Positions 12,697 to 48,637 of a stretch of 64,000 nucleotides of DNA are shown here, piece by piece. The DNA comes from Candidatus Bathyarchaeia archaeon. Lineage in GTDB: Archaea; Thermoproteota; Bathyarchaeia; Bathyarchaeales; Bathycorpusculaceae. The notes under the pieces are model-generated. The model did not search any database. It saw nothing but the letters and a program-made list of their open reading frames with translations, and was not told where the DNA came from. The stretch is from positions 1 to 64,000 of the forward strand of contig JBEKXL010000007.1 of assembly GCA_049512075.1 (NCBI GenBank). Direction: 5' to 3'. How positions within the stretch are numbered: position 1 is the first letter of the stretch; every line of letters begins with the position of its first letter. Made by a program: the position numbers and the translations under genes.

Positions 12697-12786
12697 TATG
12701 ATTCACCTCCTACTAATCTTGTGCCACGTTCCCCATTAGCGCGCGCGATTTTTCTTCACTGATTCACTCACAACGTGTATGAGTGC

Positions 12787-25462: not shown

Positions 25463-25582
25463 CTTTACCTTGAAGCGCGCGCTAGCCTCATCCATGGGTC
25501 AAGCCAGCTTAAGAGAGTAATGGAAGTTAGTTCTATTTGTCCTAGAGTTTGTTTTCCGCGCGCGCGATGTCTCCACTGTGGT

Positions 25583-26272: not shown

Positions 26273-26476
26273 ATGGGAAGTAGGGAAACTGGTAGAATTC
26301 GAAGGATGATAAAGGAGCATTCCCGGCATCCTCAACCTTGGGGTAAACATTGTTGTGAGTGCAATAATTTCAAATGGGAGTGGATAGAGGGCAAGCAGCT
26401 TCGAAAGAAATATTGTTCCAAATGGGCTAAGGAGGTCAACCCTGATAAGTGGGGTTGTTTCTATTTGTTTCATTAG
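26273..26476 (+). CDS. small Cys/Trp-rich hypothetical protein
   Basis: AGAGGAG RBS; CCECNNF...YCSKW...GC pattern; stop TAG overlaps TAGCGCGC. Confidence 0.5.
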   Translation: MGSRETGRIRRMIKEHSRHPQPWGKHCCECNNFKWEWIEGKQLRKKYCSKWAKEVNPDKWGCFYLFH

Positions 26477-26691
26477 CGCGCATGCGTGTTCCTAAAATGG
26501 TTAAAAATGGTATTTATTCTTTTTAGGGCTTTGGAGGCAGTTTTGAGGCGCACATCTGTCTTTGACCTTCTTGCACTGTCCGTCTCAACACAGCCAAGAC
26601 CCACTATCAAGCAGTCCAAATCAAACGCAGATAGGCAAAAGAAGAATAAAACCCATTTTACACCAATTTAGGAACAAGCATGCGCGCGCTA
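26474..26691 (-). mobile_element. GCGCGC-bounded wHTH mini-element copy 3 with both ~45-bp TIRs
   Basis: TAGCGCGCATGCGTGTTCCTAAAATGG ... CCAATTTAGGAACAAGCATGCGCGCGCTA; interior LAVLR joined to GQCKKVKDRCAPQNCLQSPKKE*. Confidence 0.85.
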
Positions 26692-35837: not shown

Positions 35838-37127
35838 TTACCGTTTGGAGGCTATTTTTGCGATTCCGCCCATGTACTTTCTCAGCGCTTCAGGGACAGT
35901 TATTGATCCATCTTCTTGCTGATAATTTTCGAGGATGGCGACGATTGTTCTGCCCGTGGCAAGGGCTGTTGAGTTCAGGGTGTGGACGAAGCCTTTGGGT
36001 GCTTCGCCTTCTTTTTCTCGGTACTTGATGTTCAGTCTTCTAGCTTGATAGTCGGTGCAGTTGCTGCATGAGACCATTTCTCTGTAGGCGTTCTGTGCGG
36101 GCATCCATGCTTCAATGTCGTATTTCTTTGCTGCTACGGTTCCAATATCGCCCGTGCACACGTTTACGACGCGGTAGGACAGCCCGAGTTTCTGGATGAT
36201 TTCCTCGGCGTTGTGTATAAGTTCTTCATGGATTTTCCACGAATCTTCAGGCTTGCAGAATACGAACTGTTCAACCTTGTTGAACTGGTGCGTTCGAAAA
36301 ATCCCCCGCGTGTCCTTACCATGCGCTCCAGCTTCTTTCCTGAAGTTCGTACTGAACCCGGCAAACTTTAGAGGTAGGTCTTCTGCTTTCAGCACTTCGT
36401 CCATGTACATTGATGCCAAAGGGTGTTCTGCAGTTGCGATTAGGTATAGGTCTTCGTTCTCAATCTTATAGAGTACATTTTCAAAGTCGCCTAAGGCCAC
36501 TACGCCTTCGTAGGGTTTCCTTCTGATTAGGAAAGGCGGTTCGATGGGCTTGTAGCCCTTCTTGTTCATTTCTTTCAGGGCAAAGCTGATTATGGCATTG
36601 TCGAGGAAGACAGCTTCGTTCTTGAGGTAGAAGAATCGTGCCCCAGCGATTTTTCCCGCTCTTTCGATGTCTATGATGTCAAGGTTCAGGCCTAGATCTA
36701 TGTGGCCTTTTGCTGGAAAACTGAATTTGGGGATTTTGCCCCATTTTCTGATTTCAACGTTGTCATTTTCGTCCTTGCCCGTGGGCACGGTTTCGTGGAG
36801 CAAGTTTGGCAGGCGCATCAGCAGGTCGTGTACCTTTTCTTCCCATTCGCTGACGCGTCCTTCGAGAGCATTGATTTCATTGTCCGTTTCTTTTGCCTTG
36901 GAGATTTTGTCTGCAGCGTCTTCCCCCTTTTTCTTCGTAGTGGCTATTTCGGCGGTTATCTGTTTTCTCTCGTGGCGCAGCTCGTTCAGTCTGGTTAAGC
37001 CTTGCCGCCACTGTTTGTCATAATCGATTAGGCTGTCGAGCATTTTCTGGTTTTCAGGGTCTCCTCTCTTTTCCAAGTTGTTTCTTACTGAATCTGGGTT
37101 TTCGCGAATGAGCTTGATATCAAGCAT
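35838..37127 (-). CDS. serS: seryl-tRNA synthetase
   Basis: MLDIKLIRENP, ATAE, FRKEAG, HQFNKVEQF, SCSNCTDYQARR, HTLNST. Confidence 0.97.
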   Translation of the reverse strand: MLDIKLIRENPDSVRNNLEKRGDPENQKMLDSLIDYDKQWRQGLTRLNELRHERKQITAEIATTKKKGEDAADKISKAKETDNEINALEGRVSEWEEKVHDLLMRLPNLLHETVPTGKDENDNVEIRKWGKIPKFSFPAKGHIDLGLNLDIIDIERAGKIAGARFFYLKNEAVFLDNAIISFALKEMNKKGYKPIEPPFLIRRKPYEGVVALGDFENVLYKIENEDLYLIATAEHPLASMYMDEVLKAEDLPLKFAGFSTNFRKEAGAHGKDTRGIFRTHQFNKVEQFVFCKPEDSWKIHEELIHNAEEIIQKLGLSYRVVNVCTGDIGTVAAKKYDIEAWMPAQNAYREMVSCSNCTDYQARRLNIKYREKEGEAPKGFVHTLNSTALATGRTIVAILENYQQEDGSITVPEALRKYMGGIAKIASKR

Positions 37128-37224
37128 TTTCTGTCACTTGCAACGTTTAACGTTAGCCTTGAATTGTTTATTTAACGTTGCGATCGAAGTTTGGGGCGAA
37201 GCGAAAATATGGTTTCAAAGTGTT

Positions 37225-37416
37225 GCTGAACTCTCAAGATGCAGCCTTAGCGTGTTATGGGAGAAACCCGCTTCACTTAGAAGTTGAGTGAAGACTCTGG
37301 GTTTGCCGTCTTGAAGCACAGCCAAAATACGCTCAGCAAGCAAACCCCTGGAACTGCCTGTGCAGAACCAGACCTAAAACCATTTTTGATCAATTTAGAA
37401 ACACGCATGCGCGCTA
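37225..37416 (-). mobile_element. GCGCGC-bounded wHTH mini-element copy 4 (5' part)
   Basis: Minus strand TAGCGCGCATGCGTGTTTCTAAATTGATCAAAAATGG then ERILAVLQDGKPRVFTQLLSEAGFSHNTLRLHLE. Confidence 0.82.
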
Positions 37417-37557
37417 CGAAGTCACTTGCTTTGAGCTTTTGGCAATACGGAATAAGGAAGTCATCTATCAGATAGAGATACAACTCCATGAAATCGCATA
37501 TCAAACGCGGCTTCCCCATCGCAGTACTATGCAGAAAACCCAAGCAAGGTTCAAGTC
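37417..37557 (-). pseudogene. cas1: cas1 internal fragment (solo Cas1/casposase-like)
   Basis: LEPCLGFLHSTAMGKPRLICDFMELYLYLIDDF matches Cas1 catalytic segment LxPxxGFLH...LxxDxxE; bounded by GCGCGC on both sides. Confidence 0.8.
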
Positions 37558-37629
37558 GCGCGCGTGGTGTGCGTTAGCTATAAAAGGCGAAGGTTTGTTA
37601 TTATGAATTGTTGAAGCTTGGGAAATCAT

Positions 37630-37968
37630 ATGAGTGAAGGATCTGAAAGTGTCAAGCCGGTTTCGCCTGAGAAGCTTTTGATTGATGATCCCTCCAACTT
37701 TCTGTTTCATGCTGCTTATCTCACCTATTGTGAGGCGTTTGACAAGACGGTTGATCCTGAGGGCAAGAAGCAGCTCAACGAGAGCATTGTGGCTCTTCAG
37801 CAGAATCAAATAGACTGTCAGACTTTCTACAGGAACATCAGTCGCTACCGTGAAGACAATGGGACAGCCCCGCGCACTTATGGGCGAATGATGATCAAGA
37901 CGCAGAGAAAGCGAGAGTGGCGTAGGCGAACGCAGAAACACGAGAGGATCCAGCGGCACAAGAAATAG
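37630..37968 (+). CDS. hypothetical protein with basic C-terminus
   Basis: Clean ORF with host-like codon usage, TATA-like element upstream. Confidence 0.7.
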   Translation: MSEGSESVKPVSPEKLLIDDPSNFLFHAAYLTYCEAFDKTVDPEGKKQLNESIVALQQNQIDCQTFYRNISRYREDNGTAPRTYGRMMIKTQRKREWRRRTQKHERIQRHKK

Positions 37969-42383: not shown

Positions 42384-42749
42384 CCTGAACGCCCTCGGCA
42401 CTAATTCTTACTGAGAATGACACATATCAATTATTCCTAGCAAATAGGGTGTTTCCCTTCAGAAAGAGCCTTTCTTCAGCGCCCACTCAAATGTTTTTCA
42501 TTGCGTGTTCTGGTTGCGATGAAACTTTACAACCCAAACCCAAGCGCAACTATTTCTTATCTTTCGAATGTTTTGCAGGAAGCGAAACCTGTTTTTTCTC
42601 TTTTCTTTTCAGTTCTTTCTCTCGCTGTAATTTTTTATGCTGCTCTAAACCTGCAGCTTTCTTTTCTCTTCTTGACAAAACCTCATCAACCTTAACTGGG
42701 AATAGAAGCGTTACGCATTCTAAAGCGTTGTCCTTTTGTCTGCACCTGA

Positions 42750-42858
42750 AGGACGTATACTCGATTCGTATACTACCCCCTATATCCTGTTCTAACTGTA
42801 TTCCTGCCTCTGTTCTCTACTGCCAAGTTTACTATTCCCTGAAACGAGTATACGTCCT
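42750..42858. repeat. 18-bp inverted repeat with 73-bp strand-skewed spacer
   Basis: AGGACGTATACTCGATTC ... GAAACGAGTATACGTCCT (17/18 match). Confidence 0.75.
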
Positions 42859-43010
42859 GTCCTAGACCGTTTCCACTAGGGTTTGGTTTGGATAAAACTT
42901 TACCCTAAATTAGGCTAAGTCTGACTTAAATGGTGAGTCCAGATGATTTTGCGAGCAAATGCTTTTACTTTTAAACTTGAATGCTGTCTATTGTTAAGGT
43001 GGCGTTTGAA

Positions 43011-43217
43011 TTGGTTAAGTGGGAGTATAAGGTGATTCCGATAAAGACGCAGGTTCATTCAGATCATTTCGAAGTCGACAAAAGGCCAGTGATAGACGAT
43101 GTTCAAAATGACCTGAACGCCCTAGGCAATGAAGGATGGGAACTGGTCGGCATCCAAGACATCAGCCTGCCAGACGGCAGAATGTTCACTGTCGCCTACC
43201 TCAAGAGACAAAGCTAA
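43011..43217 (+). CDS. DUF4177-domain small protein
   Basis: KWEYKV...LNALGNEGWELV...YLKR. Confidence 0.85.
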   Translation: MVKWEYKVIPIKTQVHSDHFEVDKRPVIDDVQNDLNALGNEGWELVGIQDISLPDGRMFTVAYLKRQS

Positions 43218-43345
43218 CGCGTATAAAGGCGCATATAGCTTATGGGCGCGCGTGCTAAGAAACTTGACAAAGCGTTTCAACAATGAATTACGTGAGGCAT
43301 GGACAGTAAGTGATTTGGGTCAAGGGTCTATGTGTGGTGATAAGT

Positions 43346-43414
43346 TTGGAGGAGGAAAATTGGCAAGAAGAAAACTGGGACGACTCAGAGGACGAAGACA
43401 ATTTTGAGGACTAA
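43346..43414 (+). CDS. putative 22-aa acidic micropeptide
   Basis: GGTGA RBS then TTG; MEEENWQEENWDDSEDEDNFED*. Confidence 0.4.
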   Translation: MEEENWQEENWDDSEDEDNFED

Positions 43415-43506
43415 CTCACGCGCCTCATCGACCTGACAAAGAGAGAGAGAAAGCGTAAAGTTTTATCCAAACCAACCAAGAATTTGTCAGCAAATACTCA
43501 TGCTTT

Positions 43507-43816
43507 TAGCGCGCGCTGGCCTGTCCCGAAATTGGTCTAAAATGGTTCTAATTCTTCTTTTGCCTTTTTATGCTCAATTTGAGCTTGTTTGACAGGTAGA
43601 TCTTGGCCGTTTTGAGGGGTGGTGAATAATGGGAGCTTCGCAGATCCTGCGGGAAGTGGGGTTTTCCCATAACACGTGGAGGCTGCACTTGGCCCGCTTG
43701 GAACGTCAAGGCATGATCGTGAAAGCTAACAGCGCATGCGCCTCAAAACTGCCCCCAAACCCCAAAAAAGGAATAAACACCGTTTTTAACCATTTTAGGG
43801 ACAAGCCAGCGCGCTA
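43507..43816 (+). mobile_element. GCGCGC-bounded wHTH mini-element copy 5 with both TIRs
   Basis: TAGCGCGCGCTGGCCTGTCCCGAAATTGG ... CCATTTTAGGGACAAGCCAGCGCGCTA; interior QILREVGFSHNTWRLHLARLERQG joined to CAPQNCPQTPKKE*. Confidence 0.85.
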
Positions 43817-43881
43817 CTTGGTTCTCGCTCTAACAAGACTGAATCAAGGCCATCCTGAGCGTCCGTTTGAAGAGTTGGATT

Positions 43882-47940: not shown

Positions 47941-48637
47941 CTTCCTTTTTCTGCTTTTATGATGATATGATTATCGCCCCTCAGTGGCTTAAATGTTCCG
48001 CATTTTACTGCTCGCGCTAACCCAATTGAAAGTGCAATAATCTATCTAAAGTCCATATTCAGGAACGGCCCCCCATCTTCTTTCGTTTGCAATTGAGACG
48101 AAAATTCAAAACCCACTCACCTCCCCATCAAAGGGTCAGGAAGACAATCATAATCCTTTTTCCAGATAGGCTTTCGATTCACATAGGCAGAATAGGCATC
48201 GCCCACTTTGCAGGCTTCTCGCAGGGAAAACCCCTATCTTCAATGTGTACGAGACGGAACTTGAGGAAAAATGGTCGGCGCATCCGTTAGATTTGTTGCT
48301 TCTGGTTCATACTGATGGGAAGAAAATTCATCGGAGATCGGTTGCTTTGTTCCGCAAGGATATACTTCAATGTCAGGAACTCTGAACGTTATGAAGATAG
48401 AAAAAGAGAAACAGGGCTTCCAGAAAGAGGGTTCCCGAAACAAGGCGTTCAGACTGACATCTTTGGAGAAAAAGGAAGAAGACCAATAGCGCGCGCGTAG
48501 GTTCAAGCCACGCTAAAAGAGAGTTGCAACCCTTCTCAAGGACAGCTGAGTACTGCCGCGCGTGGCGCTAAACGTGAGCACATATCAAGTAAACCTTAAA
48601 CATAACCACAAAGTCCTATTCAAGTCGGTGAAAGGCT

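Follow-up and report, generated by a model that had tools for sequence, protein, structure and literature searches.

The window, i.e. the whole stretch of 64,000 nucleotides that was analysed, contains a non-functional pseudogene scrap of a stand-alone cas1 gene, with a short run of alternating G and C at each of its two breaks. Both the Cas1 match and the flanking runs are real, and chance is ruled out for them. Most probably the scrap is what is left of a dead stand-alone cas1 gene that was trimmed on one side by the insertion of a small TIR element and on the other by a run-marked deletion, and that decayed in place. The features of the locus and its surroundings are collected in Table 1.

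Table 1. Position of the cas1 scrap, of the adjoining element and of related features in the window. G002, G003 and G004 are genomes of the same genus.
Feature	Position	Strand	Basis or remark
Cas1 remnant, ∼53 codons	37403..37561	minus	PF01867 match, genome-wide scan, identity to solo Cas1 genes
CGCGCGCG run, 5′ break of the cas1 remnant	37557..37564		Adjoins the next gene's conserved promoter region; paralogue alignment; junction common to G002
GCGCGC + TA, outer end of the TIR and 3′ break of the cas1 remnant	37409..37416		TIR profile, paralogue alignment
Solo 46-nt TIR of the wHTH element family, no partner TIR	37371..37416	minus	nhmmer, E 6.8e-11
Truncated element: left TIR and start of the wHTH gene	37224..37416	minus	Element profile, E 1.1e-30
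Stump (42 codons) of the 124-aa wHTH gene carried by the element	37218..37343	minus	Weak Pfam HTH_20 match
Another copy of the TIR family, complete, 214 bp	26474..26687		TIR profile matches
Complete 306-bp member of the TIR family, decayed wHTH gene	43509..43816	plus	
Seryl-tRNA synthetase gene, conserved left flank	35838..37127	minus	Name from reading the translation; syntenic in G002, G003 and G004
Right flank: conserved promoter region with small ORF (TTG at 37618, 116 aa)	37565..37968	plus	
Segment missing from the sister genome G002, 6 nt in its place	37247..37543		Genome alignment

The scrap is part of an open frame of 98 codons on the minus strand (37280-37573), which is closed by stops on both sides and contains a TTG start that would yield an ORF of 88 amino acids; the peptide quoted in an earlier, sequence-only reading of this DNA falls within the frame. 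Residues 5-58 match Pfam family PF01867 at positions 210-266 of the 283 in the profile, with a score of 30.1 bits (E 3.5e-7) against a cut-off of 22.3 bits, and a scan of the whole genome with the same family locates the remnant at C7:37403-37561, C7 being the contig of the window. The sequence-only reading had recognised Cas1 correctly, but its estimate of about 47 codons was too short, as the Cas1-like part of the frame comprises about 53-56 codons. With the generic NCBIfam cas1 model the fragment scores 24 bits, below the cut-off of 71.7, which is expected for a piece that covers only one fifth of Cas1. It lacks the N-terminal two thirds and the ∼70 residues at the C-terminus. The histidine of the GFLH motif and the acidic pair D..E are retained and the upstream glutamate is absent; we take these residues to be catalytic by their roles in E. 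coli Cas1. A working Cas1 enzyme should have both the full length and the full catalytic set, and the remnant has neither.

The two GCGCGC sites that the sequence-only reading had placed at the ends of the fragment are present at 37409-37414 and 37558-37563, and they coincide with the ends of the homology: in a DNA alignment with three intact paralogues, the similarity begins and ends exactly at both runs. The second site is included in the CGCGCGCG run, a bare run that is not flanked by TA. In the intact paralogues GCGCGC is found at neither break codon, the codons at the 5′ break reading AGGGCGAAG, AGGGCGAAA or AAAGCGAGA. Positions within 12 nt of such a run make up 1.64% of the genome, and two hits by chance would occur about 3 times in 10,000. 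The genome contains no second copy of the cas1 fragment.

The neighbouring wHTH element had also been seen in the sequence-only reading. The stump of its gene is real and belongs to a repeat element, and this "wHTH copy" beside the scrap is a truncated mobile element inserted into cas1. A profile built from seven full elements, with 308 model positions, matches from 37416 to 37224 at model positions 2-195, the right 113 positions being missing. The insertion would have taken place next to a TA of the cas1 reading frame. Genome-wide, nhmmer finds 124 matches to the TIR, whose consensus begins TAGCGCGC, and the copies form inverted pairs that are 134-503 bp apart. Pairs of 483-485 bp enclose only a gene for a 124-aa winged-helix protein with a C-terminal four-cysteine motif, full copies of which are located at C35:532-903 (in the element C35:462-944) and C2:161409-161893; pairs of 305 bp are internal deletion forms of these elements. 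The 124-aa protein shows weak Pfam HTH matches and is found in more than 250 metagenome protein clusters, nearly all of 124 aa and many on very short contigs. In four metagenomes the depth in the bin that contains the TIR of the locus is 10-50 times that of the adjacent bins, and metagenome contigs of other copies of the element diverge just beyond 37416-37418.

TA precedes 63 of the 123 TIR ends, against a background of 4.3%, and about half of the ends are without it; a TA target duplication is therefore a possibility only. The flanks of paired elements show no 14-15 bp target duplication and no common repeat beyond the TA. For two TIR elements of 187 bp, a comparison with four relatives yielded no clean empty site, both elements being part of larger variable stretches. 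No transposase that would mobilise the TIR elements was found in the genome, with the qualification that the mariner model matched no control genome either; the sole IS630-type DDE gene (DDE_3) is located on contig C58, which contains no such TIRs. This contig of 1927 bp looks circular, with an end overlap of 127 bp, and is GC-rich, with a composition unlike the rest of the genome. Two further candidates for element ends in the locus were rejected: a degenerate right TIR at 37130-37224, suspected from a short inverted repeat, is not reached by the element profile, and the sequence that follows the 5′ run on its right side (GTGGTGTGCGTTAGC...) is not a second element end but a conserved promoter region present in single copy. 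Rfam gives no matches in the window.

MITEs of the Tc1/mariner-IS630 type (Stowaway-like) are short TIR elements that use a TA target and leave excision footprints. The elements described here are likewise short and multi-copy, with TA at about half of the ends of the copies and with palindromic TA...TA scars of limited length. They differ in that no matching transposase was found, that the largest copies contain an intact gene for the 124-aa wHTH protein and no stump of a transposase, and that large flanking deletions often accompany the scars. The scrap itself resembles the pseudogene remnants of cas or mobile-element genes that are truncated by IS elements or MITEs, as one of its edges is the end of a small TIR element and as the gene is multi-copy, often broken and found in variable islands; unlike such remnants, it carries a fixed short alternating G/C run at its breaks even where no element is present.

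Both flanks of the spot are syntenic in G002, G003 and G004. In the sister genome G002 the same CGCGCGCG-promoter junction is followed by 20 nt of the scrap, six other letters and then the tail of the element remnant; the loss of the intervening segment is a later deletion with one end in the element and the other in the scrap. At this spot G003 contains 490 bp of unrelated sequence with runs, and G004 has 4.4 kb of other genes without cas1. The arrangement of the present genome (G000) recurs in contigs of three other studies with 98.6-99.7% identity, two of which span the whole 1.9-kb stretch unbroken, with 5 and 26 differences, the third differing at 19 positions over 36600-37865. In a fourth run, X8, one contig skips 177 nt (37258-37434). 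Only stretches covered by contigs were counted as evidence in this comparison. The arrangement is stable within the species, as is expected for neutral DNA at such divergence. Since it is deleted in G002, replaced by other DNA in G003 and G004 and partly skipped in the X8 contig, the scrap is dispensable, and it is still eroding. The same losses, together with the chimeric nature of the frame, which joins the cas1 remnant, the TIR and out-of-frame wHTH DNA, make a functional role barely credible, whether as a mini-protein or as a regulatory piece of the divergent promoter region, even though the frame is open over 98 codons and the arrangement is retained in the contigs of other studies.

Two differences between G000 and G002 were observed at other places. 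About 6 kb from the syntenic spot, G002 contains an N-terminal cas1 scrap (C14:28520-28678), ending 5 nt from a run, in a segment that replaces positions 42398-43864 of the window. G002 also has a 1.3-kb insert (C14:73606-74930) where G000 (C7:89440-89520, outside the window) instead has 29 nt ending in GCGCGC; the flank of this site resembles, by eye, the 3′ end of a tRNA gene, and the sequence is repeated near the far end of the insert.

The genome comprises 2.73 Mb in 86 contigs and is 99.76% complete. Full-length Cas1 genes (∼341 aa) are present on C1 and on C43; a copy on C2 lacks the first ∼20 codons, and C37 carries a 427-aa Cas1 (C37:3251-4528). Scraps of cas1 are the remnant in the window, C1:361088-361339 and C22:36813-36896; the genome scan shows no other Cas1 match on the contig of the window. 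The intact paralogues score 127-172 bits with PF01867 and pass the generic NCBIfam cas1 model only, none of the subtype-specific models, and the best structure match of the ∼341-aa proteins is the CRISPR Cas1 4n06_A (E 6.5e-18). In line with the sequence-only reading, which had reported neither a CRISPR array nor another cas gene, k-mer scans of the contig reveal no CRISPR-like array, and the whole genome shows no Cas2 above cut-off and no Cas4, the cas families covered being Cas1, Cas2 and Cas4. A three-copy repeat near the cas1 gene on C1 was rejected as an array, being located inside a gene for 1533 amino acids.

In a Cas1 tree of 14 rows three groups are distinguished, and the fragment falls inside the stand-alone (solo) group with an SH-aLRT value of 99; since it occupies only 15% of the alignment columns, its group can be relied on but its exact place cannot. 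It is 58-67% identical to the solo group, 38-42% to the cas2-linked type and 39%, over 33 residues, to the C37 protein. Database homologues of solo Cas1 with 60-91% identity are all ∼340-350 aa long, and the named ones are from Bathyarchaeota/Bathyarchaeia MAGs. The solo family is multi-copy, often fragmented, and occurs also in other genera. Strong Cas2 matches number ten in the 30 relatives and are all located beside a third type of Cas1, of ∼30% identity; no member of the ∼341-aa family adjoins cas2 in any genome examined, and G003 and G024 have an intact solo cas1 and no Cas2. The description of the fragment as a solo Cas1 therefore stands, its family being without Cas2 or array.

Cas1 is best known from CRISPR loci, and a 5′-truncated cas2-linked cas1 in G004 is likewise cut at a run. 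That the scrap is a relic of a true CRISPR-Cas adaptation module once present at the spot is nevertheless very improbable, considering its greater identity to the solo family than to the cas2-linked type, its position in the solo clade and the genome in which array, cas2 and cas4 were not found. With the Cas1 of CRISPR adaptation (TIGR00287, PF01867) the fragment shares the fold family and the retained catalytic histidine and acidic pair, unlike which it has neither cas2 nor array and its intact paralogues pass no subtype-specific model.

Several further observations concern the surroundings of the solo cas1 genes. The islands on C1 and C2 are absent from the relatives, the C1 island having no counterpart in those examined, and the C2 island starts at a run (C2:62852). 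In two genera the partner of solo cas1 is an overlapping gene for a 113-121-aa protein with an HELYHH motif, and in two genomes the partners are a ∼300-aa P-loop protein and a small DNA-binding protein; these partner loci are G004 C9:118082-119445 (L053), G008 C24 (L026), G003 C1 (L054) and G000 C1:349892-352166. For most neighbours of solo cas1 Pfam offers no family.

The sequence-only reading had considered that the GCGCGC system derives from, or is mobilised by, a casposase. The genome does hold one casposase-like Cas1: the C37 protein aligns along its whole length with chain 6opm_A (E 1.9e-75), 6opm being named in the paper on the structure of the M. mazei casposase (PMC6977970). Its gene lies on a 9.3-kb contig without PolB and with no TIR or run nearby, and it may be a recent arrival or contamination. 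It is found in none of the 30 relatives, G002 included, yet the (GC)n mark is present in five of five genomes of the genus, and in the tree the fragment is placed in the solo clade, apart from this protein. The four PolB genes of the genome are on C3, C8, C13 and C28 and none is on a contig with cas1, although in a fragmented assembly links across contig ends are possible.

According to PMC6977970, casposases make target duplications of 14-15 bp, which the element ends do not show, and their C-terminal HTH is essential; the intact solo proteins are ∼85 aa shorter than the casposase-like protein, which is read as leaving no room for a C-terminal HTH. The casposons and solo TIRs of Methanosarcina mazei (PMC4779613) resemble the present case in having Cas1 without CRISPR and decayed relics at preferred sites, but the present case lacks a neighbouring PolB, a duplication of 14 bp and the HTH at the C-terminus, and the clade of the fragment is separate from the casposase-like protein.

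A broader version, in which the GCGCGC elements are derived from or moved by a Cas1-type integrase, casposase or solo, and the scrap is a decayed element of this kind, could draw on the multi-copy and often fragmented state of the solo family, which is like that of a gene of mobile elements. A run or element is also found 4-6 nt beyond the end of solo cas1 in three of the four cases read, and in the fourth at 33 nt past the small partner gene. Against it, solo Cas1 is intact in G008, G012 and G024, where the loci read contain no run and the genomes no TAGCGCGCGCTA, whereas G002 has elements and run-marked indels but, with one protein query, only a 53-residue scrap of solo Cas1. We regard such a link as highly unlikely; a casposase origin or mobilisation finds no support in phylogeny, gene neighbourhood or distribution, and the mark is not specific to cas1.

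Other cas1 scraps also carry runs at breaks, so that the check named in the sequence-only reading had a positive outcome. Runs are present within 10 nt of all five internal cas1 breaks in G000 and of 4 of 12 in the other four genomes of the genus (9/17 in the genus), and of none of two in other genera; one of the breaks without a run carries a run with one mismatch. Five cas1 scraps in four genomes (L040, L042, L051, L052 and, in the window, 37561) begin within a few codons of an LEPxLGFLH motif, and the upstream flanks of these five scraps, which begin near codon 210-218, have no sequence in common. Across the relatives, C-terminal cas1 scraps (about 13) outnumber N-terminal ones (about 5).

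The runs are not specific to cas1 and mark indel junctions of all kinds. In a comparison of G000 with G002, in which 306 kb of G002 was aligned in blocks that are 94-97% identical, 20 of 40 pairs of indel junctions have a run within 12 nt of the edge, with 6.4% expected by chance and with the locus of the window scored as a miss, its run being 13 nt away. At C13:24736, 780 bp that are kept by G002 and G004 are absent in G000, which has a new ACCGCGCGCGTA filler; here the run arrived with the deletion. At C13:17509 there is no run in G003 and GCGCACGC in G000, and G002 has a 425-bp insert between (GC)4 and (GC)3. At C33:10338 both G000 and G001 are uninterrupted, with one (GC)5 in G000, and G002, G003 and G004 each contain a different insert. 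Among the inserts between (GC)n runs, some are devoid of TIRs. The cases above are consistent with mobile elements ending in GCGCGC that enter and leave the genome, leaving short scars and often taking flanking DNA with them; the marks may also have another origin, for example end-joining or site-specific integration.

Alternating G/C runs of at least 6 nt number 1445 in G000 and are about four times over-represented. Their lengths of 6, 7, 8, 9 and 10 nt are represented by 669, 195, 284, 186 and 105 runs, followed by a sharp stop, with only six longer runs (three, two and one of 11, 12 and 13 nt). Runs of at least 8 nt are located inside crude ORFs in 12-17% of cases, compared with a genome that is 77% coding, and TA lies beside 27-30% of (GC)4-5 ends, compared with 4.3% genome-wide. 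Examples in the window are found at 12739-12747, 25475-25482 and 48489-48497. Copies of the 12-mer TAGCGCGCGCTA number 16, 3, 9, 10 and 23 in the five members of the genus; among 26 genomes from outside the genus it is absent from 24, the other two containing 1 and 3 copies. Judged by the distribution of this sequence, the mark appears to be confined to the genus. A full-text literature search found no account of such a junction mark or of the stand-alone Cas1 family.

A third family of repeats, of ∼285 bp, also ends in a run (G000 C26:22424-22708). Besides this copy, ∼39 more are listed in G000; G002 has 36 matches and G001 has 21, with none listed in G003 and G004. The end of a further repeat, GCGCGC followed by TTCATGATTTGTTAC..., recurs at indel edges at G002 C1:204711, G002 C2:47312 and G000 C14:8005.

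The close spacing of the runs bears on the proposal, made in the sequence-only reading, that the GCGCGC system captures pieces of mobile DNA. The scrap would then be a cassette, a 150-bp piece cut from a broken cas1 elsewhere and pasted in as a (GC)n-flanked segment. Run spacings below 250 bp are in excess (363 seen, 165 expected), segments of 68-425 bp that have runs on both sides and no TIR differ between G000 and G002, the other genome having a single run, and a 135-bp run-flanked segment (C1:361345-361479) follows the cas1 scrap on C1. However, the left run of the present fragment belongs to the TIR element inserted beside a TA in the cas1 frame and is not a pasted end, the fragment is single-copy in the genome, and intact cas1 genes have no (GC)n sites at the break codons at which they could be cut. 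Decay in place is also simpler, since in G002 the same 5′ junction is followed by no more than 20 nt of the scrap. We consider capture improbable.

The preferred history, decay in place, can be outlined as follows. A Cas2-independent cas1 gene would once have occupied a hyper-variable spot that is bordered by the seryl-tRNA synthetase gene and the small ORF. A small TIR element with TA-GCGCGC ends would have inserted after codon ∼270, its left half and 42 wHTH codons being what remains, and the part of the gene upstream of codon ∼212 would have been lost by a deletion, the junction of which bears the bare CGCGCGCG run. The runs in the genus would be the ends, or the footprints left behind, of GCGCGC-terminated mobile elements, bare runs such as that at the 5′ break probably being footprints, and the gene would have decayed where it stood. 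Some observations are at odds with this history: no transposase was found, half of the TIR ends and the 5′ run of the scrap are without TA, run-flanked inserts without TIRs exist, and in the other members of the genus strict runs accompany only 4 of 12 breaks.

On a wider scale, we put forward tentatively, and as less probable than not, that an undescribed genus-wide process of cutting and rejoining stamps TA-(GC)3-5-TA, in runs of up to 10 nt, on about half of the indels between sister genomes, be it a system of site-specific integration or repair, or a new superfamily of transposons whose termini read GCGCGC. The same doubtful proposal holds that a stand-alone Cas1 family, which is widespread and linked neither to casposases nor to CRISPR, behaves as an integrase would in mobile islands of its own and ranks with the commonest casualties of this process.

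What makes the locus interesting is the (GC)n mark at junctions, together with the family of stand-alone Cas1 proteins; the scrap is ordinary. It does nothing by itself and serves as a clean, datable example of both. A fixed (GC)n signature at rearrangement junctions throughout the genus is a direct handle on the enzyme behind a large share of genome change, and a large Bathyarchaeia Cas1 family without Cas2, arrays or PolB bears on the use of Cas1 integrases before, or apart from, CRISPR.
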